Positions 3,557 to 63,135 of a DNA stretch of 64,000 nt are shown here, piece after piece (the stretch's first letter is position 1; each line of letters begins with the position of its first letter). The notes beneath the pieces were generated by a model. It saw only the letters and a program-made list of their open reading frames with translations, had not been told where the DNA came from and ran no database searches. The position numbers were made by a program, and so were the translations under genes. The DNA is from an uncultured Victivallales bacterium (GTDB taxonomy: Bacteria > Verrucomicrobiota > Kiritimatiellia > UBA8416 > CAZWPN01), in contig CAZWPN010000005.1 of NCBI GenBank assembly GCA_964635275.1, positions 643 through 64,642 of the forward strand. Reading direction: 5' to 3'.

Positions 3557-3591
3557 TGAAGAGTGAAAAGCCATCAAGAGGCGCGTTAAGG

Positions 3592-4086: not shown

Positions 4087-4092
4087 GGATGC

Positions 4093-5913: not shown

Positions 5914-5917
5914 CAAA

Positions 5918-7141: not shown

Positions 7142-7185
7142 GGCCGAGGGCCGCGGCGAAACAAGTCAAGGAAAGGCAGGTAACT

Positions 7186-36066: not shown

Positions 36067-36097
36067 GTTGATACGTTTCACACAGTGGAGTACGGGA

Positions 36098-37735
36098 ATG
36101 GGGCAGGGTGCGACATCGGCGAAGGACAGCGCGTCTGGGACAAGAGACCGTGCCCATCAGGATACAGCCTCCGTGGACAAGATGTTGGCGGGCGTGTTCT
36201 CGTCGGCATTCGCCGTTCGGGCTCGCATTGCGCCTGTCCGCTATTCTGCGGCGACTGATACGGTGACCATCGCCGTCGCCGACCAGACCCGCATCGCTAC
36301 CGTCTCCGCGATGTTCAGGTTTCTTCTACACGCAGGCCAAGTTGAGTTCAAACCTGTGACGCGTGAGGAACTGGAGAAGGCGCAGGCTGACTTTCGTGAG
36401 CTGACCGAAAAGGTATTCCCTTCTACAAAACCCAAGGGACGGCAGTCGATAGGGGGGGCAACCAGCATCAATGTGGCCGCCGGAAGAGCGGCCGACATCG
36501 GGCGGAGCGGCCTGTTCAAACTCGGCGGTGGGCCGCTCAAACAGACCGTGTCGCTGCCCGGCTATGCCGAGATGGGCCCAGCGTTGCTCGCGGCAGTCTC
36601 GCTGCTCGCCCAGGATCGGCTTCGGCAATCGCCTGAGATGCCGGTAGTACAGGCACGGGTTCGGCACAGTCAACTGCTGGCCGTTCGGGTGGGTCTGGGT
36701 GAGGCCCAAACCGATGCCGTAGTTCTTGCTGCTTGGTTGTCCAGCCTGCCGGGGCGGGCGGACGTCCTGTCCCGCATCCCAAATCCGTTTCACCTTGACC
36801 AGATTCTGGAGCCGACGCAGTCCGGCCCCCTTCGAACGGAAGCGCGTGTCCTGGAAGTGGTTAGGGCCTACGAAACGCTAACCAGTGAGAATCCAGACGA
36901 TGCGCACGATGTCGGCGCCACTCGACGTCGGCTCAATGCCATGGTGCCGGGCGGCGATCCGGACGTCATCGAGCCGTTCCTTCAGATAATGATGGACGAG
37001 CAGTTTCTTGCTTCACTCGAACGAAATGCCGGATCGGTCTTGCTGGCTGATCAGGCTGAGCAGGCGACCGCCGCGCTCGCCGTCCCCCTTGCTGCAGATG
37101 GGTACCATGTGGAAACCGTTCCCGATATCGCCGGGATTCATGCGCGGGTAGCAGCCTCGCCTCCGGATGTTCTGATCCTCTCTGCCTCCCTGCCAGGCGG
37201 CAGTGTGCTTGGACTGTGCCGCGAACTCAGGCGGCAGGCCGTCACGCGCCATGTTCCCATCCTGGTATTGACCGACAATGCCGACAACAGGCAGTCTGCG
37301 GAGTTTCTTCGTGCTGGCGCGGATGATGTTCTGGCCAGGTCCGCCGGACCGGAACTGACGCTGCTGAAGGTGGAGCGGCTGATGGGACACCGCGCAGCGT
37401 TCTCCGACAGCGACGGCGTTGTGGGGTCCCTGCGCGATATGGAGTTGGCGGACATGGTGCAGATCCTCGGGGCCGGTGGGCGCAACGTGGAGATCCGGCT
37501 GCGCCGTGAGCGGCGCGAGGGGCGCCTCTACGTGCGGGAAGGCGCCATTATCCATGCCGAATGCGGACCGATTCAGGGGGCTCCCGCTTTCTTTGAACTG
37601 ATGCGCTGGCGGGAAGGGTCGTTCGTCACGCTGCCATGCACGCGATTCCCCGAGCGAACCATCCACGAAACCGTGATGGGGCTCTTGATGGAAAGTGCGC
37701 GTCAGGCCGACGAACGGCTGGATCCGGAAGTCTGA
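36098..37735 (+). CDS. Regulatory protein with a GspE-N1-like (T2SSE_N) N-domain, a degenerate receiver (pseudo-REC) and a DUF4388-type C-terminal domain
   Basis: N-domain 'IAPVRYSAATDTVTIAVADQTRIATVSAMFRFLLHAGQVEFKPVTREEL'. The REC-like block has 'PDVLILSASLPGG', with Ser at the phospho-acceptor position. The C-terminus 'LRDMELADMVQILGAGGRNVEIRL...REGAIIHAECGPIQG..AFFELMRWREGSF' fits DUF4388. Confidence 0.55.
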   Translation: MGQGATSAKDSASGTRDRAHQDTASVDKMLAGVFSSAFAVRARIAPVRYSAATDTVTIAVADQTRIATVSAMFRFLLHAGQVEFKPVTREELEKAQADFRELTEKVFPSTKPKGRQSIGGATSINVAAGRAADIGRSGLFKLGGGPLKQTVSLPGYAEMGPALLAAVSLLAQDRLRQSPEMPVVQARVRHSQLLAVRVGLGEAQTDAVVLAAWLSSLPGRADVLSRIPNPFHLDQILEPTQSGPLRTEARVLEVVRAYETLTSENPDDAHDVGATRRRLNAMVPGGDPDVIEPFLQIMMDEQFLASLERNAGSVLLADQAEQATAALAVPLAADGYHVETVPDIAGIHARVAASPPDVLILSASLPGGSVLGLCRELRRQAVTRHVPILVLTDNADNRQSAEFLRAGADDVLARSAGPELTLLKVERLMGHRAAFSDSDGVVGSLRDMELADMVQILGAGGRNVEIRLRRERREGRLYVREGAIIHAECGPIQGAPAFFELMRWREGSFVTLPCTRFPERTIHETVMGLLMESARQADERLDPEV

Positions 37736-37766
37736 AATTACGGATGTGGCCCAACTGGAGCTTGTT

Positions 37767-38258
37767 ATGATGTGGTTTGGACGGAAGAAGGATGGGGCGG
37801 TCTCCAAGGTCAGGGCCGCAGCCATCCAGGGGTTTGAATTGGCGATACGCCGTGAGGAGTCGCGCCTCTACGGGCTGGCGCTGTATTTTGAATGCCTGAG
37901 TCTTTTCCGGTCCGGACAGGAGGGGCTGATCGAGACCGAGCGAAAACAGTTCCGAAACCTGATCCAGGGGGGACGCAAGCAGGTGGATGATGCCACAACC
38001 CTGCTGGAGCATGTGCGGGCTGGGAGCCAGCCTCCGAAGGCGATCGAGCACTTTGTCTTCACCTATTCCAACGGCCATCCAACTCCGGTTGAACTCATTG
38101 CAAGGGCCGATGCGCTGGTGGCAGCTTTCCGAGCTGTGTTCCCGGTGCGGCCGATGGCCCAGCCGTTCACCCCCGAGGAGACCTACCGCCTTCTTGAGGC
38201 GGCCGCCGTCATGCCAGGAATCGCTGACGCAATACACAAGGCGTCAGGCGTCAAGTGA
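37767..38258 (+). CDS. Hypothetical protein (163 aa), co-oriented with the mgl module
   Basis: An ORF with an ATG start immediately after the preceding stop. No recognisable motif. Confidence 0.4.
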   Translation: MMWFGRKKDGAVSKVRAAAIQGFELAIRREESRLYGLALYFECLSLFRSGQEGLIETERKQFRNLIQGGRKQVDDATTLLEHVRAGSQPPKAIEHFVFTYSNGHPTPVELIARADALVAAFRAVFPVRPMAQPFTPEETYRLLEAAAVMPGIADAIHKASGVK

Positions 38259-38554
38259 CAGGACTGCTTCAGAGTTGACCTGATCCTCGGCTAAGGAAGG
38301 CAAAGCTTTGTGCGGACTCGTGTGCGTCCTTTGTTTACGGCTCGCTCGGAGAGCTCGCCCCACCTGGGGAACATATACAGACTGTATGTTTCGTCAGGTA
38401 GGGCGACGCCTCCGGCGGAGCCGCTGCCGCAAGGATGTCCGCAATGGGTCCCGCCGGTAGCTCAGCGCTTAGGCTAGGATTTGGGGTTAAGGATCGAGCT
38501 TGCGCGTGCGCCTTTTGTTGGGTTAGCATTCAACCATCATTCGGGAGAAACCGC

Positions 38555-39199
38555 GTGTCATTCGTTAATCTGGCCCGCAGGGAAATCAGTTTCAAGATCG
38601 TCTACTACGGACCGGCGCTCAGCGGCAAGACGACGAATCTTGAACTACTACACCAAGTGATGCCCGCCGAAGCGAAGGGGGCGATAACCATGCTCTCCAC
38701 TCGACAGGACCGGACTCTATACTTCGACTTCCTGCCGCTCCGGTCGGAAGCCATCAAGGGCTATACCTGCCGGTTTCAACTTTACACGGTGCCCGGACAG
38801 CCGGTGTACAATGAGACACGGCGCATCGTACTGGCAAGCGTGGACGGCATTGTCTTCGTGGCGGACTCGCAGTGGCAGGAGATGGAGAACAACGTAGGCA
38901 GTTTTGAGAACATGATAGAGAACCTGCGGCAGCACAACCGTGACATGGCCGACATACCCCATGTCCTGCAGTTCAACAAACGCGATCTTCCCAATGTTGC
39001 ACCGACCGCGTACATGGATTTCCTGCTCAACCAGCAGAAAACCAGGGCGCCGTTCTTTGAGGGCATCGCCACAAAGGGTGCCGGCATCTACGAGTGCCTC
39101 AATACAGTCTGCAAACTCGTTGTTGCCCAGTTCGTTGAGACGCACAACAAGCCTAAGGAACAAGCCGAAACCTGGGACTTTCAAGAGCGAAAGGCATGA
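38555..39199 (+). CDS. mglA: Ras-like small GTPase MglA
   Basis: 'ISFKIVYYGPALSGKTTNLELL', 'TLYFDFLP', 'YTVPGQ' and 'QFNKRDLPN' are nearly colinear with M. xanthus MglA. GTG start with SD 'GGGAGA'. Confidence 0.85.
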   Translation: MSFVNLARREISFKIVYYGPALSGKTTNLELLHQVMPAEAKGAITMLSTRQDRTLYFDFLPLRSEAIKGYTCRFQLYTVPGQPVYNETRRIVLASVDGIVFVADSQWQEMENNVGSFENMIENLRQHNRDMADIPHVLQFNKRDLPNVAPTAYMDFLLNQQKTRAPFFEGIATKGAGIYECLNTVCKLVVAQFVETHNKPKEQAETWDFQERKA

Positions 39200-39254
39200 T
39201 GTGAGACCCGCTGCGGTCGGATATACGCTGACCGGACCTCAGGAGGGAGTCCTT

Positions 39255-39692
39255 ATGGATTCTCTACAGGGGTTTCTCAAGCTGTCGGGCGCCGAGTCTG
39301 CGCTGGTCGCCGATTACGGCGGGAACTTGATTGTCGCCTGCGGTCCAGCCGGTGGCGACTCCTCGCTCCACACGATGGGCGCGCTCGCGGCTGGCGCCTT
39401 CAGCGCAACGCGCGAACTGGCCGCGCTCGTCCACGAGCCGGTTTTTCAGACCATGATTCACCAAGGTGAACGGCACAGCATGTTTCTTCAGGGCATCGGA
39501 AGAGAGTTCATTATACTTGTAGTTTTCGATTCAAAAACTACAGTTGGACTCGTGAAACTCTACACGGGTAAGCTCGTTCAGGAGATGGAACCCTTTCTTC
39601 GCCAGGCCGCACTTCAGCCTATCAGCAGCGGAGGGCCATCGTTTGAGGTAAGCGTCGGCGGCGTGTTCGATCACCGGTTAGCAAAGGAATAG
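39255..39692 (+). CDS. mglB: Roadblock/LC7-domain protein MglB (predicted MglA GAP)
   Basis: Roadblock fold signature 'GAESALVADYGGNLIVACG...SLHTMGALAAGAFSATRELA'. It is immediately downstream of mglA, with SD 'AGGAGGGAG'. Confidence 0.72.
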   Translation: MDSLQGFLKLSGAESALVADYGGNLIVACGPAGGDSSLHTMGALAAGAFSATRELAALVHEPVFQTMIHQGERHSMFLQGIGREFIILVVFDSKTTVGLVKLYTGKLVQEMEPFLRQAALQPISSGGPSFEVSVGGVFDHRLAKE

Positions 39693-39829
39693 TCGCCTTC
39701 GACCAGAATCAAGATCACACCGTATGGGTCAATCTCCAGCGCCTGTCCAGGTGCTCTTCGCCTCGCCGCCTGCATGGTTATGGTGCAGGTTGTGAGGTCT
39801 TCATCTCCTGTCCACCGGTTGGTTCGGCG

Positions 39830-42800
39830 CTAAGGGTTGAGGAGTAAGTCGGGCGGGCTGATGAAGATCCGGTCGCCCGTGACGAATGCGAAGCGGCCGT
39901 TAGCCAGGAGGTGGACCGCGTTCACCTCGGCTCCGCAGGGCACGCGGTCTCCGGACAGTTTCGTCATACCGTTGCCATCCAAAACGTACAGCAGCGGATG
40001 CACCCGCACCAGGAAGATGCCGTCGGGCGAGGGAAAGGCACTCACCGGCATGTAATTCTCCACCGCGATTTGCCTGGTGTCGGCGCCAGTTGAGATATAC
40101 CGCTGCCCCTTGCCGGTGTGCAATACCGGCATGCAACCGGGTTTGGCCTCCAGAAGGCCCGGGTCAAACCAGCGCAAGCCTTCGGTATCAACCAGGCATT
40201 TGCCGCCATACTCCAGCGGCGTCGGTTTGATGCCTTCGATTCGATACGTGTTGAACACCCAGTCATTCTCGCACAGCAAGTACAACTCACCGCGCAAATC
40301 GCGCGAAGCGCGCCCTTTGGGCACGGGGTTCCATGTCCTCCCGTCCCAAATGTTTCCCCGGAAGTAGACGCGGCCATCCGCGGCAACCGCCGGCGGTTCC
40401 CGTCCCGCGAATTCCCTGACGCCGAGGCTGACCAGTTTGAGCACGCCGCTCTGCATGTCAGGTGCCGCCTTCGGCGGCTGATTTGGAATCAGGACGAACG
40501 TGGCGCCGGCAACGTTGACCACCGCGCTCCCCTGATCGCTGACGACCAAATCGCCGCCACCGGTCATCTTCCACGACACCTCGTTTGTGCCATCGGTTCG
40601 TATCAACGTCCTGCGATCGGACGTCCAGTACCAGACGTTCCCGAAACCGCCGGCCGTGAAGGTGGGCAGGGCCGGCGCCAGACGCCAGCCGGACCATGCC
40701 AGCGCGTTTGTTCCGGCGGGTTGCGCCGGGTCGTACACCAGTAGTTGTTCGCTGCGCAGTATCCAGATGCGTCCGTCCGGCGCCTCGCGGAGCGCGATGG
40801 TATTGCCCGGTCGCACCCCTTCCTGCCAGCCGTAATCGGCCGCGCCCTGGGCGGCCGAGCCGATGATCAGCCGGTCCCTCCCATACGAATAGGCCAGCAC
40901 CCCGTTGGTCGTGCCGAGGAATTGATAAGCGCCTGAGTCTAGCATGGGTGGCACGGCCGGCGGGGTGCATGGCGCGAGTTGGGTCTCTTTCATGTCTTCG
41001 CTGGAAAACCGGGAGAGTTGTTTGCCCCTCCAAACATACAGGTTCCCGTTGCCATCGCTCCGGAATGCGCCGACGCGCGGAAATTTCACTTCACGCAGCC
41101 CCCCACGGATCAGATCAATGATAGCGCCGCGTGACGGCACGACCAGGCTGTCCCGGCCCAGTGTGCAGACGGGAAACGGAAGGACTCCCTCCCATTGTCC
41201 CCAGGAAATTGCGGGACTGAGATCGCCGTTGCGATAAACAAAGCAGTAGCCGTAGCACTGGATAACCAGCCCTTCGGGATGCGGAAGAACTTGCGCGGTA
41301 TGTCCGATGTCCCGCTCCCACCTCTGTGTGCGTTGCCCGTCCCAGCGCGAGGCGGTGCGGTGACCGATCGTCCAGATTCCGCCGATCATGTCCGTGTGGA
41401 TCGGCCCCTCGGCGTACCGCGGGTCGGCGTAGAGTTCGGCAGCGCGCCGGGCTCCATCCTGACGAAATTCATAGATCGGCAACCGCGCCGTGTCGCCCAT
41501 GATGGCGCCGGGCCCGACAGCCCAGACCCTGCCGCGCGCCGCCGAGAGAGAGTGCGCCTGAACCTTGTGAAACGCCGCCTGGCGATGCGCCAGATCTATT
41601 GCCATCACACCACCATCAATGAGGATCCAGACCACACCAGCGGAGTCGATTTCAAGCGCTCGCCCCATTACTTTGCGATCCGCCACCGTCGCGGGCAACG
41701 CCTGCAACCGCCGCGGATTGAGGGTCCATGCATCGTCCAGGGCATGAGTCGTTACTTGCGCTGACGGACCTCCGTCGAGCGTCAGGCGCAACGGTTCGTC
41801 CGAGACCACGCCAAACCCATCCGCCGCATACACCTCGATTTCATGCAGGCCCGGTTGCAGGGACGGAAGGTCGCCGCCCTCAGGCGCCGCTATCCTGTCA
41901 GCAAACTCGCCGTCGAAAAAGGTAAGAATCCGCAGTTTGTAGAGCGGTTCGGAACCGGCGATCCGGCAATCGAGTCGGTGCGCCGTTCCCGTGCTGACGA
42001 CTTCCCCGGCGATTGTCAGTTTTTGCGGGGCCTGAAAACGCAGTGTGTTGTCAGTGAGCATGTAGAGACCGTTCGTTCCGGGATAGACGCGACCGGAGAC
42101 AGGGTAGACCGCTGTGTAGAATATGCGGTTCGGCCCCATCCAGCCGCCTCCGGCGGCCGGCACAAAAGCTTCATTGTTCTGCACGGCGAGACTGCGCGGC
42201 GCGCCGTTCCCCGCAGGGTGACCGAGCAGTGAGGACAACACCATCTTCGGCTTTCCCTCGTACACGACCGGCAGACGCCCGGCACCCGCGCCAACTGCGA
42301 TACCGTCGAGGCCGACAGACAGCGGCGGCGCTTGCCTCTCGGCCCAGAGGTAGGTGCTGCCGTCGCTAAAACGGGTCGCGCCCGTTGTCACACTCTCGTC
42401 CCAGGCGCGCGTGGGCGCGTTCGGCCAGTTCGTGACGATGCCGTCCGTCACCAGGCATGACCCGGACTGAGTGTCCTGGAAACCGATCTGCAACCGGCCC
42501 TTGTCGTCAACGCTCATTCTTTGAGGGATGCGGTTTCCAAGATTCATGTCCAGGTGGCGCCATTCCTTCCCGTCGTGACTGCTGAGTTTGCCCGGAAAGT
42601 CGAACAGGAACGCCCACATTGTCCCGCTGCTGTCACGGACGCAAGGACCGGCCAGCTTCCACTTCGGCCTGTTGGCGATGCCGGCAGCCTGCGGCAGCGG
42701 CTCGGTGGTGCGCCAGACTGCCATCTTCCCGTCACCGGCCAGAATCAGGTCGTCGCCGACAACTGCGAGGCGTTCGACCCGTGGAATAGGCAGGCCACTG

Positions 42801-43804
42801 TCCGGCGCGAGGAGGGAAACCTCTTCCGGACCGAACACGGCGAGCGTGCCGTCAGAGATTGCGGCGAACCCGACACTGGAGGCAGCGAACACGACGTTCA
42901 ACTGGGCCATTCCATGTTTGCTGCGCCCTGTCCGTATGACGTCATCGGAGCCCTTGATATCGACCTGGCTGCGTCCGTCGGCCGCGTACCAGAAGAAGGT
43001 GAACTTCGGGTTCCTGTCAGTCTGCCCTAGGACCAGCAGACGGCCGTCCGGGGCCGTGACCATGCCGTAAAACCAATCCCAGCCGAGGTTCAGACGCTCA
43101 GGCGGATCGGATGGCTTGTTCGGATCAATGCGCCCTGAACTGATTCTGAAGCTTCGGCGATCGCACCCCGCCAGCAAGTGGTCAGGCCCGAGCCGGAACG
43201 GACCCACGCACGTGGAATCGCCCGCGAACGGAGGCGCAGGATCAACCGTCACCTTCTCCGGCGTGGCCCATATCGCATTCGGCCCGCAGATCAGGGCGAC
43301 GTGTCCGGGCCGCCATTCGCAGGGTTGACGGACGGTGGGGCCGTACCGTTGAGCCGGCATGTCCAGCAGCGCCTCCTCCTTGCCGACGACCAGAAGCCGT
43401 TCCCCGGTCTGGATCCACACGCGGCCGAGCGCATCCACGTACCACAAATCGCACGGCACGTTGGGCGTCGTGGTAACCGGCGTGGCTTCGCCGCCAGCCA
43501 GACGGTGTATGGCGAACCGGGTCTTCAGGTCCTGCCGGGCAAAGACCTCGCGCCCGGCGTTATCGGTGATGTCCACAACCCCGTCGAGGGCCAGAGCGTT
43601 CCAACCTTCCTCCGTGTTTTGGAGGTCCATCCACAGGATCTTCGTCGCCGTGCGGATATAGATATCGCCCGCCGCGTTGGCCCGCAGGTCAAGGATCTGT
43701 CCCGGCGGCGATGGCAGTGTGCGCACTGGATCCGCGGCGACTGAGAGGTGAATGGTCGCCAGTGCTATCCAACAGCGTGTGTACGATGTCATGGGGATCC
43801 TCAA
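39830..43804 (-). CDS. Giant secreted beta-propeller-repeat protein (two-component-regulator-propeller/Y_Y_Y-like repeats), paralog A
   Basis: Signal peptide, then repeated 'G.(I/V)W(I/V)...G(L/V)..(Y/F)D' Reg_prop-like units throughout the protein. 1324 aa. Confidence 0.7.
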   Translation of the reverse strand: MRIPMTSYTRCWIALATIHLSVAADPVRTLPSPPGQILDLRANAAGDIYIRTATKILWMDLQNTEEGWNALALDGVVDITDNAGREVFARQDLKTRFAIHRLAGGEATPVTTTPNVPCDLWYVDALGRVWIQTGERLLVVGKEEALLDMPAQRYGPTVRQPCEWRPGHVALICGPNAIWATPEKVTVDPAPPFAGDSTCVGPFRLGPDHLLAGCDRRSFRISSGRIDPNKPSDPPERLNLGWDWFYGMVTAPDGRLLVLGQTDRNPKFTFFWYAADGRSQVDIKGSDDVIRTGRSKHGMAQLNVVFAASSVGFAAISDGTLAVFGPEEVSLLAPDSGLPIPRVERLAVVGDDLILAGDGKMAVWRTTEPLPQAAGIANRPKWKLAGPCVRDSSGTMWAFLFDFPGKLSSHDGKEWRHLDMNLGNRIPQRMSVDDKGRLQIGFQDTQSGSCLVTDGIVTNWPNAPTRAWDESVTTGATRFSDGSTYLWAERQAPPLSVGLDGIAVGAGAGRLPVVYEGKPKMVLSSLLGHPAGNGAPRSLAVQNNEAFVPAAGGGWMGPNRIFYTAVYPVSGRVYPGTNGLYMLTDNTLRFQAPQKLTIAGEVVSTGTAHRLDCRIAGSEPLYKLRILTFFDGEFADRIAAPEGGDLPSLQPGLHEIEVYAADGFGVVSDEPLRLTLDGGPSAQVTTHALDDAWTLNPRRLQALPATVADRKVMGRALEIDSAGVVWILIDGGVMAIDLAHRQAAFHKVQAHSLSAARGRVWAVGPGAIMGDTARLPIYEFRQDGARRAAELYADPRYAEGPIHTDMIGGIWTIGHRTASRWDGQRTQRWERDIGHTAQVLPHPEGLVIQCYGYCFVYRNGDLSPAISWGQWEGVLPFPVCTLGRDSLVVPSRGAIIDLIRGGLREVKFPRVGAFRSDGNGNLYVWRGKQLSRFSSEDMKETQLAPCTPPAVPPMLDSGAYQFLGTTNGVLAYSYGRDRLIIGSAAQGAADYGWQEGVRPGNTIALREAPDGRIWILRSEQLLVYDPAQPAGTNALAWSGWRLAPALPTFTAGGFGNVWYWTSDRRTLIRTDGTNEVSWKMTGGGDLVVSDQGSAVVNVAGATFVLIPNQPPKAAPDMQSGVLKLVSLGVREFAGREPPAVAADGRVYFRGNIWDGRTWNPVPKGRASRDLRGELYLLCENDWVFNTYRIEGIKPTPLEYGGKCLVDTEGLRWFDPGLLEAKPGCMPVLHTGKGQRYISTGADTRQIAVENYMPVSAFPSPDGIFLVRVHPLLYVLDGNGMTKLSGDRVPCGAEVNAVHLLANGRFAFVTGDRIFISPPDLLLNP

Positions 43805-43805
43805 G

Positions 43806-46800
43806 CTATGGGGTGAGACGCAGGTCGGTCGGACTGATATAGAGACGGGAGTGGACAGCCAAGGCCCAGCGGCCGTCGGCCAGCGGCCAAACCCTGAGAC
43901 CCCATCCAGGATCGAGTTCGTCGCCGCAGGGAACGGCGCTGCCCGGGATGCGTGTCAGTCCCTGCGCGTCAAGCCGGTGGAGTTTGGCGCCGACGCGCAT
44001 CAGGAACTGACCGTCGCCCAGTGGCAAGGCCTGCAACGACCCGTGGGGATCGATCCTGATCCGCGTCGCGTTCACGTCGCTCGACACTTCCGGCGTCTCC
44101 TTGCTCGCATACCAGACCGGCAGGCAGCCGGGGTTGGCTTCCAGGATGCCCGGGTCGTACCAGCGCAAGCCATAGGCATCGATCAGACACTTCTCAACTT
44201 GCCCCAGCGGGATGGCCTTTACTCCGTCGATGCGATAGGCCACGGGCAGTGAACTGCGCTCCATGCAGAGCAGAAAGATCTCCCCGCGCGGATCGAGTGA
44301 GGCCCGTCCGTCCGGTACGCTCTGCCAGGCATGGCCGTCCCAGATCTTGCCGCCGAAATACACCCGCCCATCGGCGGCAACAGCCGGCGCCCCATCGCCT
44401 TCGAACGACTTGGCGCCGCGCTTGACAAGTTCCAGCACCGCGCTGCGCAGGTCCTTCACGCGCTCCGGCGGCTTGCCGGTCGAGAGAAGATAGGTATCCG
44501 TTCCGGCGCCAATCGCCGCGGCGCCGTTGTCGCTGACGATGATTGCGTTAGCGCCGGGATACCTCTGCGCCCACGTCATATCGTTAGTACCATCTGAAGA
44601 AGCGAATCCAGTCCGTTCCGGATTGCCGTACCAGACGCGACCGAATGCGCCCACCGCGAATCGCTCCTGCACCGGCGCCGCGCGCCAGCCCTGCCAGGCC
44701 GAAGGAATCGCGTCGGCGGGTTGGGTTGGGTCATACACAAGCAACTGCGCCTGACGCATGATCCAGATTCGCCCGTCAGGCGCTTCGCGGATTGCGTGTG
44801 TGCGGCCAGGCTGAACGCCGTGTTGCCAACCATATTCAGCCGCACCTTCGTCAGCCCGGCCGGCATACAATCGCTCGCTCCTGACCGTATAGGCCACGAC
44901 CCCGCCAGACGTGGCCAGAAACTCGTATCCGCCATCATCCCAAAGCGGGGGCATGGTGGGCGGCGGGGAATAGACGAGCTGGGTCATCGCCAGGTCGTCG
45001 CCTGAAATTCGGTAGAACTCCTTGCCCTTCCAGACATAGAGGCTGCTATCGGGGCCGGCCCGGTATGTATCGCCGAACGGGATCTTCCGGTCGCTGGGTC
45101 GGCCACTTTCCACCTCCAAAAGCAGCCGCTGCAGCGGCAGCAGCAAATAGTCGCGGCCCAGGGGATAGGCAATTCGGTCCGCCTGCTGCCAGCGGTACTT
45201 GAAGTCGCCCGGCCATGGGATGGACTTGCTGAGTTCGCCATCGCGATAGATCAGGTAGTGCCCACGCGTATAGATGATGGTGCCTTTAGCGCTCGTCGCG
45301 ACGAAGGGATCATAGTCGAGTGTTCGCTCCCACTGTCGCGTCTGTTTTCCGTCCCAACGTACGGCAGACCGGTGGCTGAGCGCCCAGATCCCGCCTTCGC
45401 CATCGGCGCTGATTTGCTGGTGGGCGTAGGAGGAGTCGTCGTAGAGGTCGACCGCGCGCCGGATGCCGTCGTGTCGCAATTCAAGAAGGGCGATGTGCAC
45501 CCCGTCCGAGCTTCGTTCCCCGCGCGCCCAGACGCGTCCGCGAGCAGCCAGCAGTTCCTGAGCGGGACAGCGGTAAAACGTGGCCTTCCGCTCCGCCGGC
45601 GCGAGCGCAACGACACCGCCCTCGACCAGAATCCAGACCACGCCATCGGAATCAATCTCGAGTGATCGTTCAAGCGCCGTGCGGCCGGCTATTGTCGCGG
45701 GCAGCACCTGCAGGCGCCGCGGTTTGAGATCCCAGTCCTCGCCCAGTTCAAGGTTCACGACTTCAAACTCGGGACCGCCATCGAGCGTCAGTCGAAGCGG
45801 CTGCTCCGATACCACGCCGAAGCCGTCCGCCGCGTAGACTTCAAGCATGTGATCGCCCGGCTTGATAGGCGGCAGATCGACACCGTCGGGCGCGGCGATC
45901 GAATCGAGAAACTCGCCGTCCAGGAAGGTCAGCAGCCGCGGTTTGTAAGGAGGTTCAACGCCGGCAATCTTGCATACCAAACGCCGCAGTTTTCCATCGG
46001 CAAGCACCGTCCCATCGATCGTCAGCGTCTGCCGTGGCTGATAGCGCAGTGTGTTGCCGTCGACGAGGTAGTGGCCGTTGGTTCCCGGATAGACTCGGCC
46101 CGCAACGGAGTAGTGCGCATCGCGGAAGATGCGCCATGAACCCACCCATCCGCCGCTGGGGCCAGGGATGAACGCTTCATTGCCCTGCAGCGTCAGGAAT
46201 CGGGGATTGCTGCTCGCCTGTGATCGCGGCAATGGCAGTTTCAGTTGCCCGTCATAGATCACGGACAGACGGTCTTTGCCTGTAATGTCGGCCCTGATGC
46301 CGTCGGGCCCAATGGACAGCGGAGGCACCTGCGTTTCTGTCCAGCGCCCGTCCGCGAAGGCCCACACCTTCTCTGCGCTACAGCGATAGCACACGCCGTC
46401 CGGGCCGAGCCAGAAATAACGGTAGGGAGGCTTGTCGTAGTAATCGTATTCCCGCTCACCGTCCCAAAGAGAGCGGCCGTTGTAACGCCAGAGCCATTCG
46501 GCTTTACCTGCTGCTATGTCATGCGATCGGAACGGGCTGCCGTCGCGGAACCGGGTTGCGCCCTGCCTTATGCTTTCAACCCAGGCTCGGACAGGCTGAT
46601 TGGGCCAGTTGGTGACTGCTCCATCACGGAAGAGCGCTGACCCGCTCGGCGCATGCGCGGAGCCAATCTGCAGCATCCCTTTGTCGTCGCCGGTCATGTC
46701 TTGGGGGCTAAGGTTCTGCAACTCGAGGGGGAACTGCCCCCACTGCTTGCCGTCGTGATGACAAATCTTGCCTGGGGCGTCGAGCAGGAATGCCCATAAG

Positions 46801-48050
46801 GTCCCGCTGATGTCGCGGACGCAGGGTCCGGTCAGCATCCACTCGCGCCGTTCGTCGAGTCCCGGGGCCGCCGGAAGGGGGGCGGTGGTCCCTTTGCGCC
46901 GCTCGTCTAGACCTGCGGCAGCGGGCAACGGTTCGGTGGTCCGCCACACCACGATCTTGCCGCCCCCGGCCATGATGAGATCGTCGCCGACTGCGGCCAC
47001 GCAATCGACTCTTGGTAACGGCAGGCCGGAGGCAGGCGTGATCATGACGGCCTCGTTCGTACGGAATACCGCCAGCATGCCGCCGGGTAATGCCGCGAAG
47101 CCCACACCCGTTGCAGCGAACACGACGCGTGACTTGCCCGGCTCGGCAAGAGAAGCCCCATTAAGGATGGGGCCGGATTCCTTCAGTTGCACTTCACTGC
47201 GGCCGTCGGCCGCGTACCAGACAAAGCCGCGATGCGGACGGCTGAGCAGTCGGCCGTCGGGGGCCGTGGCTACGCCATAGAACCAATCTCCCCGTCCCAG
47301 GTTCAGGCGTTCGGGCTCTTTGCCCGGCGTGCGCGGATCGAGCAGGAATGAGCCTGCGCCTTTGTTGTTGCACCCGCCCGAGACCAGGCGATCGGCTCCC
47401 AGGCGAAACGGGCCGTTGCCCGTGCCATCGTCGGCGAATAAAGGAGCCGCCTCGGCTATGACTTTCTCCGGCGTAGCCCACACGGCTATGGAAGCGAAGA
47501 ACAGCACGACATGCCCAGGCTTCCATTCGCATGGCTGGCGGAACCTTATCCCGTAGCCCGGCTGGCCCATCGGCCATTCTATCAGAGTCTCGTTCTTGCC
47601 CGCGACGAGGAGCCGCTCCCTGTTCTGGATCCATGCCCGACCCAGCGCATCCACGTACCAGTGCTCGTAAGGCACGTTCGGCGTGGTGGTAACGGGATTG
47701 GCCGTGGCGCCGGCGAGGCGGTGGATCGCTAAGCGGGTCTTCCGGTCCTGAAGCGCAAAGACTTCGCGCCCCGTGTTGTCGGTGAGGGCAACAACCCCGT
47801 CGAGCGCCAGAGCGATCCAGCCTTCCTCCGGGTGTTGAAGGTCCATCCACAGGACTTTCGTCGCCGTGCGGACATAGATATCGCCAGCCGCGTTGGCCCG
47901 CAAGTCAAGGATCTGTCCCGGCGGCGATGGCAGTGTGCGCACTGGGTCCGCGGCGATAACGCAAGAAGCCGCAGTCAGCGCCATCAAGCAAACTATACAT
48001 GGTCTCATGCTATGCTCCCGGACGGCGCTGCCCAACGGCGCTACCTTCAT
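43806..48050 (-). CDS. Giant secreted beta-propeller-repeat protein, paralog B (tandem duplicate of 39830-43804)
   Basis: N- and C-termini are shared with paralog A ('ADPVRTLPSPPGQILDLRANAAGDIY(I/V)RTATK(I/V)LWMDLQ'). 1414 aa. The likely true start is 'MRPCIVCLMAL' (~48008). Confidence 0.7.
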   Translation of the reverse strand: MKVAPLGSAVREHSMRPCIVCLMALTAASCVIAADPVRTLPSPPGQILDLRANAAGDIYVRTATKVLWMDLQHPEEGWIALALDGVVALTDNTGREVFALQDRKTRLAIHRLAGATANPVTTTPNVPYEHWYVDALGRAWIQNRERLLVAGKNETLIEWPMGQPGYGIRFRQPCEWKPGHVVLFFASIAVWATPEKVIAEAAPLFADDGTGNGPFRLGADRLVSGGCNNKGAGSFLLDPRTPGKEPERLNLGRGDWFYGVATAPDGRLLSRPHRGFVWYAADGRSEVQLKESGPILNGASLAEPGKSRVVFAATGVGFAALPGGMLAVFRTNEAVMITPASGLPLPRVDCVAAVGDDLIMAGGGKIVVWRTTEPLPAAAGLDERRKGTTAPLPAAPGLDERREWMLTGPCVRDISGTLWAFLLDAPGKICHHDGKQWGQFPLELQNLSPQDMTGDDKGMLQIGSAHAPSGSALFRDGAVTNWPNQPVRAWVESIRQGATRFRDGSPFRSHDIAAGKAEWLWRYNGRSLWDGEREYDYYDKPPYRYFWLGPDGVCYRCSAEKVWAFADGRWTETQVPPLSIGPDGIRADITGKDRLSVIYDGQLKLPLPRSQASSNPRFLTLQGNEAFIPGPSGGWVGSWRIFRDAHYSVAGRVYPGTNGHYLVDGNTLRYQPRQTLTIDGTVLADGKLRRLVCKIAGVEPPYKPRLLTFLDGEFLDSIAAPDGVDLPPIKPGDHMLEVYAADGFGVVSEQPLRLTLDGGPEFEVVNLELGEDWDLKPRRLQVLPATIAGRTALERSLEIDSDGVVWILVEGGVVALAPAERKATFYRCPAQELLAARGRVWARGERSSDGVHIALLELRHDGIRRAVDLYDDSSYAHQQISADGEGGIWALSHRSAVRWDGKQTRQWERTLDYDPFVATSAKGTIIYTRGHYLIYRDGELSKSIPWPGDFKYRWQQADRIAYPLGRDYLLLPLQRLLLEVESGRPSDRKIPFGDTYRAGPDSSLYVWKGKEFYRISGDDLAMTQLVYSPPPTMPPLWDDGGYEFLATSGGVVAYTVRSERLYAGRADEGAAEYGWQHGVQPGRTHAIREAPDGRIWIMRQAQLLVYDPTQPADAIPSAWQGWRAAPVQERFAVGAFGRVWYGNPERTGFASSDGTNDMTWAQRYPGANAIIVSDNGAAAIGAGTDTYLLSTGKPPERVKDLRSAVLELVKRGAKSFEGDGAPAVAADGRVYFGGKIWDGHAWQSVPDGRASLDPRGEIFLLCMERSSLPVAYRIDGVKAIPLGQVEKCLIDAYGLRWYDPGILEANPGCLPVWYASKETPEVSSDVNATRIRIDPHGSLQALPLGDGQFLMRVGAKLHRLDAQGLTRIPGSAVPCGDELDPGWGLRVWPLADGRWALAVHSRLYISPTDLRLTP

Positions 48051-48216
48051 TGAATCACGGCCCCTGACACGGTGCGTACCGGGATTCTGTCTAATTCCTG
48101 TGCCCGGAGTCCATCCCGATTCCCCGGCACGTCTTTAAACCCTTATGCCAGCGCCCAAACGGATTTCTTGCATGGTTACGGAAGAAAAGGATACCGGTAG
48201 CCGGAAACGGGCAGGA

Positions 48217-48609
48217 TTACTCCCGCCAGAGCAATAAACCGGAGACGCTTGAGAAGTGCGTGTCGTAGGTTACCAGGCGAGACCCGCTTTCGGTGGCGTG
48301 GGCGGCGATCCAAATATCATTGACGGGGATTGGCGTCCCCGCTTTGCGAAGCCGGTGTTTGATGGTGCCGAATATATCCGATGTCTCCCGCGTCGCTGAA
48401 AGGACGCGCACAGTTGGCCGGCGAAGAAAACCATCCAGTTGGGTGCGGTTTTCCATTTCCCTGGCGCCCCCCTTGAAACCCGCATAGAGTTCCCCGAGAA
48501 CGAAAACAGACATGAAGACCGTATCAGCATGGCCCAACACATCCAGAACAGCTGTCTCGCCTTGGAGCAGACGCGTGTAGGCGTTGGTATCCAAGAGTAT
48601 CTTGCTCAC
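48217..48609 (-). CDS. vapC: PIN-domain ribonuclease toxin VapC
   Basis: 'ILLDTNAY', an acidic PIN triad context, and 'VTYDTHF'. There is a 4-bp overlap with the upstream antitoxin. Confidence 0.85.
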   Translation of the reverse strand: MSKILLDTNAYTRLLQGETAVLDVLGHADTVFMSVFVLGELYAGFKGGAREMENRTQLDGFLRRPTVRVLSATRETSDIFGTIKHRLRKAGTPIPVNDIWIAAHATESGSRLVTYDTHFSSVSGLLLWRE

Positions 48610-48863
48610 TTCCAGTCTCCCGGATCGACAGTTTCCATGTCGGCGACACGTTCCTCAAACGCCCGGGCATCTTCCTCTTTCCACGTTCCGCAGAACTCCA
48701 AAAAATCGCCCCGATGTGGTGGTTCGGCGGCCAACTTGATGCCCAACCCCTCCGCCAAGAGTTGTTTCACAAGTACATTCATACTGACAGATTGTTCCTT
48801 GGAACGTCGCTTGATCAGCTCCGCCAACTGATCGTCAAGACCATGTATGGTGAGTGAGTTCAT
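48606..48863 (-). CDS. vapB: VapB-like antitoxin
   Basis: A small protein ('MNSLTIHGLDDQLAELIKRRSKEQSVSMNVLVKQLL', RHH/AbrB-like) translationally coupled to vapC. Confidence 0.6.
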   Translation of the reverse strand: MNSLTIHGLDDQLAELIKRRSKEQSVSMNVLVKQLLAEGLGIKLAAEPPHRGDFLEFCGTWKEEDARAFEERVADMETVDPGDWK

Positions 48864-49193
48864 TCCGGCCTCCATATGAATCGCATAGTGAGTCACAGTG
48901 TGGACCAGATAGTACGTATTACGACTCACAACGTCAACCAACGAATTTGAGCCACATGATTTCCCATCCGGGCGCTCTATTTCATTCACTGCGAAAGACG
49001 ATGGCATAAAGGACTGGTTTTGGTGCTCTCAGCCCAACCTCGGCGCTCCGACAAAGCCCTCTCACACTGCTGTTGCCCTCCTGCCCGCTTCTGGTGCAGC
49101 TTCTGCCATGAATTCATTCATGCATGCCGATCTCAACGGGCGTGTGCCCGTAATACTTGAAAAGCGAGATCCCGGACCACCCCGAAGTTCTGG

Positions 49194-49433: not shown

Positions 49434-51377
49434 TCAGTCCTTCTGCGGCACTGGTTTGAGCGCGGTTTCAAGCTGAGCGGGGGTCAGAATACGAACGCTA
49501 CCGTCGCAGAAGGCGACGCAGACGGGTTGTGTATCCGGTCCCGGCGGTGCGTAGGCCAGAACCGTCTCGTTGGGATTCTTGACTGAATCCAGCGGACGGC
49601 CGGTCACGGCCGGATTCAGCCGGAAGAACTGCCCGCTCCTGGCGTCGCGCAAGGCCGTGTCCTTATCGCCGACATACCGCTTGAGATCCGCAATCTCCGC
49701 AGGCAGTTTCTGATACTCCATCGCATACGTGTGGCAGGCCATGGCGACTTGCCTGAGACTGTTCCTTGTTTGGTTCTGGGTGTTCTGCGCAACGGCTGCG
49801 CGCCCCGCGCCAGCCAGGAGCCGTACGATGCCGGCCGCGAGATTCCGGCTGCCGCCTTCGACCCGGAGCGTCACTCCTGCAGCGTCGGAAGTCAGGCCTG
49901 CTGTAATCCGTTCCAAGCCGGACTGAGGAAAGCATCGGGCAGCGTCCAGCGTCGCAAATGCCATCGCGCCGGGCTGGCGCGCCGCCAGTGTCTTGCCAAT
50001 GCTGTCGCCTCCTTCAATGAAGTGCTTAAGGAAGCGTTCCGCGCCGGCCCGCGTCTGGCCGCGTGAGGGCGCCACCAGCACCACAGTGCCTTTCAGTGCG
50101 ATCAGTGCCTCGTCCGTTCTCCATACCGTCACGCCCCGCAGTTCCTCCTTACCCGCCTTGCCTTCCTTCTCCACCCGCGCCATCAGAACCCGCACAGAAG
50201 TCAGCATGCTCGTGGCATCCTTACCTTCGAAATATAGGGCCCCGCCGTGGTCGAGTTCCAATCCCCTGGCTGGATCCGTCACCACCACGGCAGCCGCGAC
50301 GAGGTTGGAGACGAGGTCAGCCTGGACGTCCAAGCCTGTTTCCCTGCGGAAATCTCGGATGAACTCCTCGCGTGGGCCTGTTCCGCCGTGTTCAAAGATT
50401 GCGATGTGGCCGAATCCAGCCTCGAGGAGATCCCATACCTTTGCCGTATCCCGGACACTGACCGCAAGCGCCAAACTCGCGTCCGCAGGAATGGCATCCA
50501 GCAGCGCCGGCGGGCGCTCGGGCGGCTTCAGTGCGGCCGCCAGCGGACTGCCCGGATCAATCTCTGCCCGCAGCACGATGGCGTCTCTGGTAACGCGCAA
50601 CGCCGCGCCACGCCATGCCGGCAAATCAAAGAACGCGCCGGCGGCCATGAACTCGGCACTGTCATGGTCTCCCATGGCAGGCAGAAGGCCGTTCACGACA
50701 GCGCCCACGTCGGCACGCATCTGGAGCAGCGGACGCGATGTTCCCGACACATCCAATCGGGCGGACGGGGGCGTTTTGGCAGCCGCAGCCGCCTGGAGCA
50801 GAAACGTCTCCGCCGCCATCGTATCGGAGGCCAGTACCAGCATTCCGTTGATTTCGGTGAGCCAGAGCGCCTCCCTCGGGTGGCGGCTCACGGAATGGAG
50901 TGTACGTCCCGCGTATACCACGGTGCGGCAGGGGCCGGCGTCGGACGCGCCCGCGACCGGATTGTTGGACAGCAACCTGGGCAGAATGTCGGGGGCGCCT
51001 CCACGATCACACACGACGACGAAACGAGGCCGTCGGCGATCGGCCATCCCCAGGGGCCAGAGTCCGACGGTGCGCACACGGGCGACGGCGTCGCGAAGCG
51101 CGGCGGGGTCCAGGCGCGTCCGCTCGCTCATGGCTTCAATGGCCTCGCCGTAGGCGGCCTCGGGCGTGCGGCCGTCGAACAGGGCCTTGGCCAGTTCGGG
51201 GTCCTCCCGGATCATCGCGCGCAATTGTGCGACGTCCAGCACGGCGGCGCCAACTGCCACGGTGGGCGTCAGGGATTCGAGTGCGATTCCACGATCGGCG
51301 TCCTTCGAACTGTCCGGAACGCTGAGGAACAGAACGAGAAGCAGTTTGAAGAATCCACTGACACTGATAGCTTCCAT
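49434..51377 (-). CDS. Secreted protein with a large unknown N-region and a DUF1559-like C-terminal domain
   Basis: Signal peptide 'MEAISVSGFFKLLLVLFLSV'. The C-terminus 'LRQVAMACHTYAMEYQKLP...VCVAFCDGSVRIL' resembles the H-x9 and '(F/L)ADGSV' ends of planctomycete DUF1559 proteins. The pilin-like N-helix is absent. Confidence 0.55.
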   Translation of the reverse strand: MEAISVSGFFKLLLVLFLSVPDSSKDADRGIALESLTPTVAVGAAVLDVAQLRAMIREDPELAKALFDGRTPEAAYGEAIEAMSERTRLDPAALRDAVARVRTVGLWPLGMADRRRPRFVVVCDRGGAPDILPRLLSNNPVAGASDAGPCRTVVYAGRTLHSVSRHPREALWLTEINGMLVLASDTMAAETFLLQAAAAAKTPPSARLDVSGTSRPLLQMRADVGAVVNGLLPAMGDHDSAEFMAAGAFFDLPAWRGAALRVTRDAIVLRAEIDPGSPLAAALKPPERPPALLDAIPADASLALAVSVRDTAKVWDLLEAGFGHIAIFEHGGTGPREEFIRDFRRETGLDVQADLVSNLVAAAVVVTDPARGLELDHGGALYFEGKDATSMLTSVRVLMARVEKEGKAGKEELRGVTVWRTDEALIALKGTVVLVAPSRGQTRAGAERFLKHFIEGGDSIGKTLAARQPGAMAFATLDAARCFPQSGLERITAGLTSDAAGVTLRVEGGSRNLAAGIVRLLAGAGRAAVAQNTQNQTRNSLRQVAMACHTYAMEYQKLPAEIADLKRYVGDKDTALRDARSGQFFRLNPAVTGRPLDSVKNPNETVLAYAPPGPDTQPVCVAFCDGSVRILTPAQLETALKPVPQKD

Positions 51378-59661: not shown

Positions 59662-60792
59662 CTATTTCCGGATGCCGCAGACAATCTTAATCTCATCGTC
59701 TGACAGGACGCGGTTGTAGATGCGGATGTCGTCCAGTCTGCCGTTGAAGTAGTTGTTACTGCCGGGGTCGAAGTCCGCGTCCTTGCGCTTGCCGATCCGC
59801 AGCGGTTCGGTGGTGGGCTGTGAAAGAATGTGCCCGGTCTGGGTTTGTTCGGTGTAGATCAGGTCCCCGGTCTTCTGGCCGTCGAGATACACGCGCACGC
59901 GATTGTCTTCCCGGGAGATCGTGACTGCCAGATGGTGCCACTGGCTGCTTTTCAGAGACTTCAGAGGGAAGGTGTGTCCTTCGGAGCACATGTAGGGGGC
60001 CACCTGACTGCAGACATACACATGCCACAACCCTTCGTTGACATGGAAATTCAGGTCAAATTGGCCGCCATGATTGGACGAGGTGGGACTGTGATCCTGC
60101 GTCAGACTCCCGGACGGTTGTTTCGTGATAAAGAAGTGTGAACTGCGCCCGTGGCGCTGGTCATCCACCGGACAGACCCAGGCGGCAATGGTGATCTCCG
60201 TGAGCGCGTCGTAGACGCCGCTGGAGGGAACTTCGATCCACGCGCTCTTGCCGTCGAACGACATGGCACAGTCGGGGCGGTTACTGCGATCTGGCGCAGG
60301 TTTGGCGCCGCGCAGGATGCCGTTGCACTTGTTCTCGCTGGCGTCGTTGGCTGTGCCATCATTGAAGTTGTACCAGGCTATCAATCCATCCTTGGTTCCC
60401 GCGCCATCCAGGCCGCCGGGCAGAAGCCGAAGTTTGCGGATATGTTCGATGCGCACCGTGACCTTGCCGAACGCCGTTTCGAGCGGGATGGGGCCGAGAT
60501 TGATCACGCCTTTGATCGTGTCGCCGTTCAGCAGGTCGAAGGACACGGTTTCATGATCCTCACCTATCTTCATGCCCACGATCTGACTGAACGGCAGTTT
60601 CATTTTGGCATAGGGTGTCTCCACAGGCACGGAGTCTACGTTTGGGGTGCCGATGATGTGCGAGCCGTCCACGAGATCCAGTTTGAGACGGAGCTGTTGC
60701 GGTGCTTCTTTCGTATTGTCCGGTCCACCCCAAGCGCTTCCGCCTAGCGCCAATGCCAGCAGGGCCACCATCCTGATTGCAGCGATCTTCAT
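59662..60792 (-). CDS. Secreted LamG-like (Laminin_G_3/concanavalin A-like) domain protein, paralog 1 of a tandem array
   Basis: Signal peptide and a conserved N-module 'LRLKLDLVDGSHIIGTP...GEDHETVSFDLLNGDTIKGVINL'. The LamG_3 C-terminus has 'LIAWYNFNDG' ... 'GRLDDIRIYNRVLSDDEI'. Confidence 0.7.
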   Translation of the reverse strand: MKIAAIRMVALLALALGGSAWGGPDNTKEAPQQLRLKLDLVDGSHIIGTPNVDSVPVETPYAKMKLPFSQIVGMKIGEDHETVSFDLLNGDTIKGVINLGPIPLETAFGKVTVRIEHIRKLRLLPGGLDGAGTKDGLIAWYNFNDGTANDASENKCNGILRGAKPAPDRSNRPDCAMSFDGKSAWIEVPSSGVYDALTEITIAAWVCPVDDQRHGRSSHFFITKQPSGSLTQDHSPTSSNHGGQFDLNFHVNEGLWHVYVCSQVAPYMCSEGHTFPLKSLKSSQWHHLAVTISREDNRVRVYLDGQKTGDLIYTEQTQTGHILSQPTTEPLRIGKRKDADFDPGSNNYFNGRLDDIRIYNRVLSDDEIKIVCGIRK

Positions 60793-60877
60793 TGCGCTCG
60801 TCTCCTTTAAAATCCAAACGTTGCCGTTGAGGGCTTCGTCCCGTCGCCGGCGGCTTCAACTTCCTCTGCTGTCTCCG

Positions 60878-61915: not shown

Positions 61916-61936
61916 CTCCTTTTCTCGTGCCGTTGC

Positions 61937-63001: not shown

Positions 63002-63135
63002 GGCCTCTCCTTTGGTTTGCCCTTCGAAAACGGCAGTTACTATTAGGTACAGACGGCTGACCCAGCCGTCCGCGGACGCCTCGGTGAGGAGTCCCTACCT
63101 GGCGTCCATATTCATGGGAATCTTCAGTATGGGTG

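Follow-up and report, generated by a model that had tools for sequence, protein, structure and literature searches.

Proteins built from tandem beta-propellers are known from the Bacteroides hybrid two-component sensors (BT4663, BT4673; PDB 4a2l, 3ott, 3va6), whose extracytoplasmic part consists of tandem propellers followed by a beta-sandwich, and from PorZ (PDB 5m11), a secreted protein of the type IX attachment complex with two beta-propellers and no enzymatic domain. Here we analyzed two giant genes that recall both, located in a 64,000-nt stretch of DNA (the window) from an uncultured Victivallales bacterium (GenBank assembly GCA_964635275.1, contig CAZWPN010000005.1, positions 643 to 64,642). 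The genes, termed W1414 and W1324, lie in tandem on the minus strand, and their evolution resembles two further kinds of described system. Tandem surface-protein paralogs are generally known to undergo concerted evolution and segmental gene conversion. For the replacement flexible genomic islands of aquatic bacteria, clusters of giant proteins have been listed and selection through phage sensitivity has been proposed (Lopez-Perez et al. 2014, PMC4033161). The locus is a combination of these known kinds, namely multi-propeller exported proteins, conversion between tandem paralogs and flexible-island giant proteins.

Comparison with each system reveals likenesses and differences. The sensor domains of BT4663 and BT4673 are among the best Foldseek matches for both structural models, N-terminal and C-terminal. 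Unlike those systems, the giants have no transmembrane segment, kinase or regulator output, and two further propellers are predicted after the sandwich. PorZ is matched with E=9e-13 and a TMq of 0.27, which is a match at the level of the generic fold only, and the giants differ from it in having no type IX secretion system (T9SS) C-terminal domain. To our knowledge type IX secretion is a Bacteroidota system; none of the genomes that carry the family is labelled Bacteroidota. As in other tandem surface-protein paralogs, a short tract appears to have been homogenized in old, diverged neighbors and is marked by low synonymous divergence (dS) and tree incongruence. In contrast to those systems, the locus has no sign of silent donor cassettes, invertible elements or programmed variation, and conversion would have affected the conserved part of the protein rather than the variable part. 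Resemblance to the giant-protein islands (PMC4033161) lies in very large, putatively exported proteins at a fixed position between conserved flanks, in alleles that differ strongly between close strains and in the implication of homologous recombination. In this case, however, island behavior applies to relatives (L002, L007, L028) rather than to the window lineage, the alleles are homologous mosaics rather than unrelated gene sets, and surface exposure is only inferred. We assign a probability of roughly 60% to the joint reading in which W1414 and W1324 are ancient four-propeller paralogs with a 5' conversion tract, subject to segment exchange, placed at an island locus and acting in extracytoplasmic binding.

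W1414, the upstream giant gene, is an open reading frame (ORF) of 1414 aa at 43806-48050 (minus strand), read from an ATG at 48050; the start called by the Joint Genome Institute (JGI), M23, gives 1392 aa. Its downstream paralog W1324 occupies 39830-43804 (minus strand) as a maximal ORF of 1324 aa from a TTG at 43804, and the NCBI and JGI calls both place the start at an ATG at 43792 (1320 aa), leaving 13 nt between the W1414 stop and this ATG. The two genes are collinear end to end, with 54% protein identity and 62% DNA identity in a codon alignment, and GC content is even over both at ~63-65%. The ratio of nonsynonymous (dN) to synonymous divergence, dN/dS, is 0.2-0.35 in all segments of the pair and 0.14-0.34 between W1414 and its ortholog P0002 (P and L numbers denote family proteins and the loci compared). 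An earlier note on this DNA had described two adjacent same-strand genes of common architecture with far more diverged central regions, and both points stand, the central regions having 51-72% DNA identity. Its claim of shared sequence at both termini holds for the 5' region and fails for the 3' ends, where no similarity above the gene average was found (47-50% aa, ~61% nt). A promoter and terminator scan of the locus returned sites no more frequent than in shuffled sequence. W1414 and W1324 are ancient tandem paralogs.

Inspection of the 5' region reveals a different pattern. A maximal-segment scan against the 62% background identified a best segment of 166 nt at 92.8% identity, covering codons 32-87 of W1414. 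Its score of 41.5 compares with a maximum of 17.3 in shuffled sequence, that is to say, 0/2000 codon shuffles reach it (p<1/2000). The two copies of this putative conversion tract lie at 47790-47957 in W1414 and at 43574-43741 in W1324 (codons 22-77 of the 1324-aa ORF), both on the minus strand. Identity over codons 32-100 is 88.9% at the nucleotide level, and blastn aligns the 5' regions at 83% over 387 nt. The first 22-31 codons, encoding the signal peptides, barely align, and identity starts at the predicted cleavage site, between ..VIA and ADPVRTLP in W1414 and between ..SVA and ADPVRTLP in W1324. An alignment check for uniform divergence, which the earlier note had proposed, thus gave a non-uniform result with one tract. 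The ~90% identity that it had read over the ~100 first codons is retained for codons 32-100 and lost for the signal-peptide codons; "near-identical" 5' ends was an overstatement, the similarity being 93% at best; and its suggested conversion of the signal peptide and N-terminus narrows to codons 32-87, with the signal peptide outside the tract.

Synonymous sites and trees separate this tract from the remainder of the genes. Between W1414 and W1324, codons 34-135 have a dS of 0.42, compared with 1.14-1.64 for each of the remaining domains, and the proportion of synonymous differences (pS) is 0.22 in codons 26-75 and 0.5-0.77 further on. Neighbor-joining (NJ) trees with bootstrap were prepared, one per codon segment of the family alignment. 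Within codons 32-87 the two genes are mutually nearest at 92.0% nucleotide identity, versus <=87.7% for copies from other genomes; they group with 93.5% bootstrap and share four nucleotide states exclusive to them. Over codons 88-135 the pair is 78% identical, W1324 is 82-84% identical to L001, L007a or L012, and the bootstrap value for the pair is 1.5%; elsewhere it is 0%. Over codons 136-400 W1324 is nearest to P0011, which comes second in the L002 gene pair (78.6% nt), and W1414 is nearest to L007a, L001 and L012 (82-84%). W1324 joins P0011 with 100% bootstrap for codons 136-375 and 404-770, and over codons 136-770 W1414 groups with P0002, P0005 and P0006. Because of these dS values, nearest neighbors and segment-tree bootstraps, a short gene-conversion tract between the two genes, confined to codons 32-87, is supported and a recent duplication is rejected. 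The predicted tract is short (~170 nt) and, at 7% divergence with a pS of 0.22, not very recent.

Part of the 5' similarity is not specific to the pair, because ~100 N-terminal mature residues are conserved family-wide. This module (47646-47951, minus strand; W1414 aa 34-135) has 70-98% amino acid identity in most cross-genome member pairs, and other regions go down to 40-55%. It is modelled with a predicted local distance difference test (pLDDT) score of 90-97 and appears to comprise the closing strand and first two blades of propeller 1. Judged from the alignments, the 5' similarity is two-layered, with a family-wide conserved module and a conversion tract inside it. An account without conversion, in which the similarity arises only from stronger purifying selection on an essential N-terminal module, is unlikely. 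It would explain why the same ~100 residues are so conserved among members from different genomes, why the window pair at 83% amino acid identity in the module is no closer than cross-genome pairs (81-84%), and why dN is lowest in the N-terminal segment. Selection on the protein does not fit the synonymous divergence, which is 3-4 times lower in the segment than elsewhere, nor the observation that the pair is mutually nearest in nucleotides only at codons 32-87, nor the grouping of W1324 with P0011 at 100% downstream of the tract.

A recent tandem duplication followed by fast divergence of the central and C-terminal parts, which the earlier note had offered as an alternative to conversion, is highly improbable. 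The genes are indeed in tandem on the same strand, 13 nt apart and fully collinear, yet dS of 1.1-1.6 outside the 5' tract places synonymous sites near saturation, dN/dS of 0.2-0.35 carries no signal of relaxed or positive selection at this resolution, the closest relative in other genomes differs between the two genes, and tandem pairs with 13-14 nt spacing also occur in L002, L007 and L018. Recent duplication was rejected on the trees as well, since beyond codon 135 W1414 and W1324 join different foreign genes at 99-100% bootstrap. Least probable of all is a collapsed or chimeric repeat. The contig is metagenome-derived and the repeat is common to both genes, yet the copies are only 62% identical overall, and at 166 nt and 93% identity the tract lacks the length and similarity that would confuse an assembler. 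Neither reading frame is interrupted, and both evolve under purifying selection. Moreover, L017, a contig that JGI assembled separately, carries the PIN gene, the two giants and mglBA in window order, with 4 mismatches in 11,496 nt (99.965% identical; 4 single-nucleotide differences per 11.5 kb) against window positions 37255-48750. This independent assembly argues against the artefact that the earlier note had wanted excluded. The only four differences between the window and L017 are at 37381, 37786, 47517 and 48624; one of them falls inside W1414 and leaves the protein unchanged (P0001, 100% identical).

Beyond the tract, comparison of family members indicates evolution by whole-segment exchange at domain boundaries (~aa 100-135, ~780-810 and ~1045-1110), which on the same comparisons occurs both between tandem copies and between alleles. 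Identity between P0004 and P0010 over five segments is 98, 79, 68, 44 and 46%, and between P0004 and P0003 it is 85, 51, 69, 96 and 79%. For L002a and L009a, two domains have a dS of 0.11-0.13, and the one lying between the two has 0.88. L007a is of the L001/L012 type at aa 100-780 (80-93% nt) and of the L002a/L009a type at aa 840-1414 (75-98% nt), and L007b has the reverse pattern. The switch point at ~aa 780-810 coincides with the boundary between the immunoglobulin-like (Ig) domain and propeller 3, and the two L007 genes are apparently reciprocal chimeras of types found elsewhere. A further breakpoint recurs at ~aa 90-135. W1414 itself carries a propeller-3 cassette (44916-45713, minus strand; aa ~780-1045) that is swapped relative to its otherwise closest relative, P0002: identity to P0002 is 70-96% everywhere except propeller 3 (30-56%), and W1414 groups with P0008 at 100% bootstrap for codons 790-1045 and with P0002 at 99% for codons 1050-1414. 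Family genes are single in L001, L005 and L012 and paired in the window, L002, L007 and L018; tandem pairs occur in at least four lineages other than that of the window.

In the L009 locus (1288-10451; also L010 and L013) three family ORFs follow one another. P0009 is full-length, a 1062-aa copy lacks propeller 1 and retains a signal peptide together with "AAEPDRTLPAS", and the third, of 554 aa, is an N-terminal fragment with 98% identity to P0011. The arrangement resembles a rearrangement between paralogs caught in progress. In the window, 137 nt separate the W1324 stop from the mglB stop, and within this spacer a 61-nt stretch (39694-39754, minus strand) has 72% nucleotide identity to 45617-45677; read in frame it gives ...ALEIDPYGVILILVEG, which fits the family motif of the Ig/propeller-3 boundary. 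The stretch could be what remains of a lost third copy, on weak evidence. A bAvd/23S_rRNA_IVP-like gene lies in L006 at 13388-13813, ~8 kb from P0008. The bAvd protein is an accessory protein of diversity-generating retroelements, and such an element was set aside as a source of the cassettes, which differ at 50-70% of residues, unlike the product of point hypermutation; no reverse transcriptase was found among the called genes of the P0008 locus.

To describe the domains being exchanged, we turn to the structural models. AlphaFold2 with the family alignment predicts aa 34-420 of W1414 to be all-beta (pLDDT 81, predicted TM-score (pTM) 0.81), with 31 strands in groups of four, and the C-terminal 1015 aa (aa 400-1414) to be all-beta as well (pLDDT 78.6, pTM 0.55). 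Foldseek returns hundreds of propeller matches at E<=1e-3 for the N-domain model and multi-propeller proteins for the C-terminal 1015-aa model. The best matches are the BT4663/BT4673 periplasmic sensor domains, BamB, designed "Pizza" propellers, WD40 proteins, PorZ and the Sevenless ectodomain, with TM-scores of only 0.2-0.5, which is similarity at the fold-class level. On the strand grouping and Foldseek matches of these models, W1414 and W1324 are beta-propeller fold proteins. Domain limits, derived from strand patterns, pLDDT dips and family breakpoints, give W1414 a predicted layout of signal peptide, propeller 1 (aa 34-375), proline/alanine-rich linker, propeller 2 (aa 404-670), Ig-like sandwich (aa 677-770), propeller 3 (aa 780-1045) and propeller 4 (aa 1050-1414). 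W1324 has the same collinear layout, and for the family as a whole a signal peptide, four propellers and one Ig-like domain are predicted. Foldseek against viral structures gave only generic propeller matches with low TM-scores.

Each protein begins with a putative export signal, a hydrophobic N-terminal segment followed by an A-x-A motif (MRPCIVCLMALTAASCVIA and MTSYTRCWIALATIHLSVA, each continuing with ADP), whose hydrophobic core is weak in W1324. Analogous segments are present in all homologs, and no other transmembrane-like hydrophobic 19-residue window was found beyond the N-terminal segment. The family proteins, of ~1,300-1,450 aa, are thus predicted to be Sec-exported. A description as giant secreted beta-propeller proteins without kinase or transmembrane output had been given from the letters alone, and it agrees with the all-beta models and the single signal-peptide-like segment; kinase and receiver domains were absent from both proteins in Pfam and NCBIfam searches. 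The proposed Reg_prop repeat type fared less well. No Pfam or NCBIfam model reaches its cut-off in W1414 or W1324, Reg_prop (PF07494) scoring 19.0 and 13.1 bits, respectively, against 20.4, and Y_Y_Y (PF07495) has no match at E<=1 in either. The sandwich at aa 682-743 has a weak BiPBP_C match (23.4 bits, cut-off 26.8). In the linker between propellers 1 and 2, W1414 carries a tandem duplication of 17 codons (46839-46940, minus strand) with units TTEPLPAAAGLDERRKG and TTAPLPAAPGLDERREW that match at 36/51 nt and are absent from all other members. Tandem Repeats Finder reported nothing relevant and missed this diverged 51-nt duplication, which was spotted by eye.

The family so defined is rare. 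A word-indexed search of 5.8 billion clusters recovered 14 relatives, all annotated "hypothetical", and the few with organism labels are Lentisphaerae or Kiritimatiellia; a second word-indexed search with the family profile added no further members. Family loci number 6 in 185,579 species genomes and 8 in 241 million metagenome records. An exhaustive hidden Markov model search with the propeller-1 profile against 1.84 billion representatives found 11 proteins or clusters at E<=1e-30, from metagenome genomes of the Planctomycetes-Verrucomicrobia-Chlamydiae (PVC) group labelled Kiritimatiellia, Lentisphaerae or Pirellulaceae. Weaker profile matches consist of one blade matched repeatedly, and the 8 proteins just outside the family that were checked with Pfam include 7 bacterial WD40 proteins, 1 DUF5122 protein and 0 Reg_prop proteins. 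The family profile has no match among all PDB sequences at E<=10, and a literature search on Kiritimatiellota with beta-propeller or laminin G found nothing relevant. By these profile comparisons the giants form an orphan propeller family and are not Reg_prop members. Outside the core clade, L014 (7561-20028) holds a distant homolog (~31% identical) in a metagenome-assembled genome (MAG) labelled Pirellulaceae, preceded by an extracytoplasmic function (ECF) sigma factor and a 430-aa ORF and followed by DUF1549/DUF1553, DUF1501 and PPC-domain genes, a context unlike that of the core clade. Only two family-gene fragments (aa 108-231 and 324-386; 67-70% identical) are found in L015 (10084-10641), a low-coverage MAG labelled Verrucomicrobia ("casp150"), and they are probably a degraded family copy.

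At the level of the locus, two partner genes recur with the giants. The gene orf647 (49434-51377, minus strand; 647 aa) has homologs of 56-59% amino acid identity upstream of family genes in L002, L007, L009, L012 and L021/22, and genes with LamG domains lie beside family genes in L001, L002, L007, L009, L012 and L019 (homologs 32-58% identical). Island behavior was assessed by comparing loci L028/L029 (empty), L007/L008 and L002-4. L028 and L029 have the order orf647, LamG and SpoU methylase; 40 bp separate LamG from SpoU, and the giant pair is missing. L007 has the same flanks (96.0% and 98.0% identity) with an 8.4-kb pair at that spot, and the L002 flanks are 92-98% identical to those of L007 and L028/L029. 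Between L002 and L007 flank identity is 95-98%, and the pairs themselves are only 77-81% identical and rearranged. Cargo downstream of orf647 homologs in L030/L031 consists of zeta toxin and restriction-modification genes, or of a DUF1016 protein. Across these alignments, the locus in close relatives of one another behaves as a replacement-type flexible genomic island, the pair being absent or replaced by divergent alleles. The accessory-like context suspected earlier thus gains a clean presence/absence polymorphism, which is stronger than could be seen in the window alone.

With regard to function, the giants are, from sequence, probably variable extracytoplasmic binding proteins. They would act outside the cytoplasm as binding scaffolds, with the conserved N-terminal blades docking onto a conserved partner. 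Candidates for this partner are the orf647 protein and the LamG lectin-like proteins. Variable ligand or recognition specificity would reside in propellers 3 and 4, which are exchangeable, and the diversity could be kept by frequency-dependent selection; candidate ligands include glycan, protein and phage. Several points weigh against the joint reading. Evidence for the conversion tract amounts to 168 nt and four sites shared by the pair alone, and the strong purifying selection on the N-terminal module adds to the similarity and is not fully separable from conversion. The relatives that reveal island behavior have partner genes with no more than 56-59% identity to those of the window, and the "empty site" contigs are metagenome-assembled. 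Neither an alternative allele nor an empty site was retrieved from the lineage of the window itself; the only close relative, L017 at 99.965% identity, is essentially the same sequence. Docking onto a partner is pure inference from co-location, and no characterized homolog supports any function for the giants.

A more specific and tentative proposal is that the pair is the variable component of an undescribed cell-envelope system of freshwater PVC-group bacteria, composed of the orf647 protein, LamG proteins and one to three giants. The two-blade N-terminal module would dock the giants to invariant partners, and propeller cassettes would be shuffled between tandem copies and strains, changing surface recognition specificity for phage or predator evasion, or for glycan or particle capture. 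If this were true, ordinary homologous recombination would be driving a form of surface variation based on domain cassettes.

Somewhat less probable is descent from the Bacteroides hybrid two-component sensor domains, with the kinase output lost and the giants persisting as degenerate, soluble glycan sensors or binders. Such an origin is suggested by the BT4663 and BT4673 sensor domains among the top Foldseek matches (E=1e-8 to 1e-13), by the sub-threshold Reg_prop matches and a "faint" Reg_prop match on L009b, by the propeller-propeller-Ig order of the N-terminal half, which resembles the sensor layout, and by glycoside hydrolase, sulfatase and LamG genes near several loci. It is weakened in several ways, as Reg_prop stays below its gathering score with no Y_Y_Y, the TM-scores of 0.2-0.5 are accompanied by equally good matches to BamB, WD40 proteins, PorZ and Sevenless, the eight checked neighbors of the family in the profile search are WD40 (7/8) or DUF5122 (1/8) and never Reg_prop, and no PDB chain is matched by the profile.

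That the giants are cargo of a defense or toxin-antitoxin island and act in phage defense is very doubtful. A vapBC pair directly upstream in the window, HepT/MNT by P0008, vapC by P0006, zeta-toxin and restriction-modification genes downstream of orf647 homologs in L030, and the strain-level presence or absence of the pair would all suit such a role. PADLOC and PHROGs gave no matches at E<=0.01 for either giant or orf647, however, and a site of action outside the cytoplasm is suggested by the signal-peptide-like N-termini and the all-beta repeats. Moreover, the genes with conserved linkage are orf647 and LamG, and the toxin-antitoxin genes differ by locus.

The pair defines an unannotated and very rare protein family and, under the joint reading, offers a worked example of how giant repeat proteins diversify. 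In it, conversion and exchange make use of one conserved 5' module, propellers are swapped whole at domain boundaries, and the locus is gained, lost or replaced between near-identical genomes. If surface-exposed, the giants would be candidate determinants of how strains of uncultured, Kiritimatiellia-like lake bacteria interact with phage, grazers, particles or glycans. For annotation, such proteins should not be read as Reg_prop sensors, nor their 5' similarity as evidence of recent duplication.

The flanks of the pair in the window are as the earlier note described, with a GTPase/Roadblock module convergent on one side and PIN and ribbon-helix-helix (RHH) genes on the other. An mglA-like small GTPase gene of Ras/Arf type (38555-39199, plus strand) and an mglB-like Roadblock/LC7 gene (39255-39692, plus strand), both assigned with Pfam and called as genes in L017, converge with W1324. 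They close a plus-strand group at 36068-39692 that also encodes an MshEN-receiver-DUF4388 protein and a 187-aa ORF without matches; the maximal ORFs of mglA and mglB overlap by ~260 nt, an overlap absent from the called genes. The other family loci searched yielded no mgl homolog, and their downstream neighbor is SpoU methylase or another gene. A functional link between the giants and mglAB was rejected on this basis, adjacency to mgl not being a conserved feature of the family. Directly upstream of W1414 lies the vapBC-like toxin-antitoxin pair (48217-49007, minus strand), with a PIN toxin at 48217-48609 (E=1.9e-15) and an RHH antitoxin ORF at 48606-49007 (weak FitA-like RHH). Toxin-antitoxin modules also flank family genes in L005 (HepT/MNT) and L012 (vapC).

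Further upstream, the orf647 protein has a hydrophobic N-terminus that, read by eye, resembles a signal peptide or membrane anchor, and its family comprises only 12 clusters with no Pfam domain. Between orf647 and the LamG array lies a gene for a 2675-aa protein (51426-59453, minus strand) with TPR and BamD/YbgF-like repeats and alpha-2-macroglobulin domains (MG2, bMG3, A2M_BRD, A2M); its position is held by a VIT-VWA protein in L012, L028 and L030. The weak BiPBP_C match had suggested a link between this A2M protein and the giants, and no A2M homolog occurs in the other loci. The array of LamG_3 (concanavalin-A-like lectin) genes at 59662-63960 (minus strand) consists of three complete copies (Pfam E=1e-16 to 1e-27), with N-terminal signal-peptide-like segments, and one related ORF. 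This fourth ORF (63136-63960) has only tblastn similarity to the N-terminal part of the LamG genes, and the array genes share an N-terminal domain ("..LDLVDGS.IIGTP.."). In L028, five LamG copies stand in a row with a sixth beside orf647.

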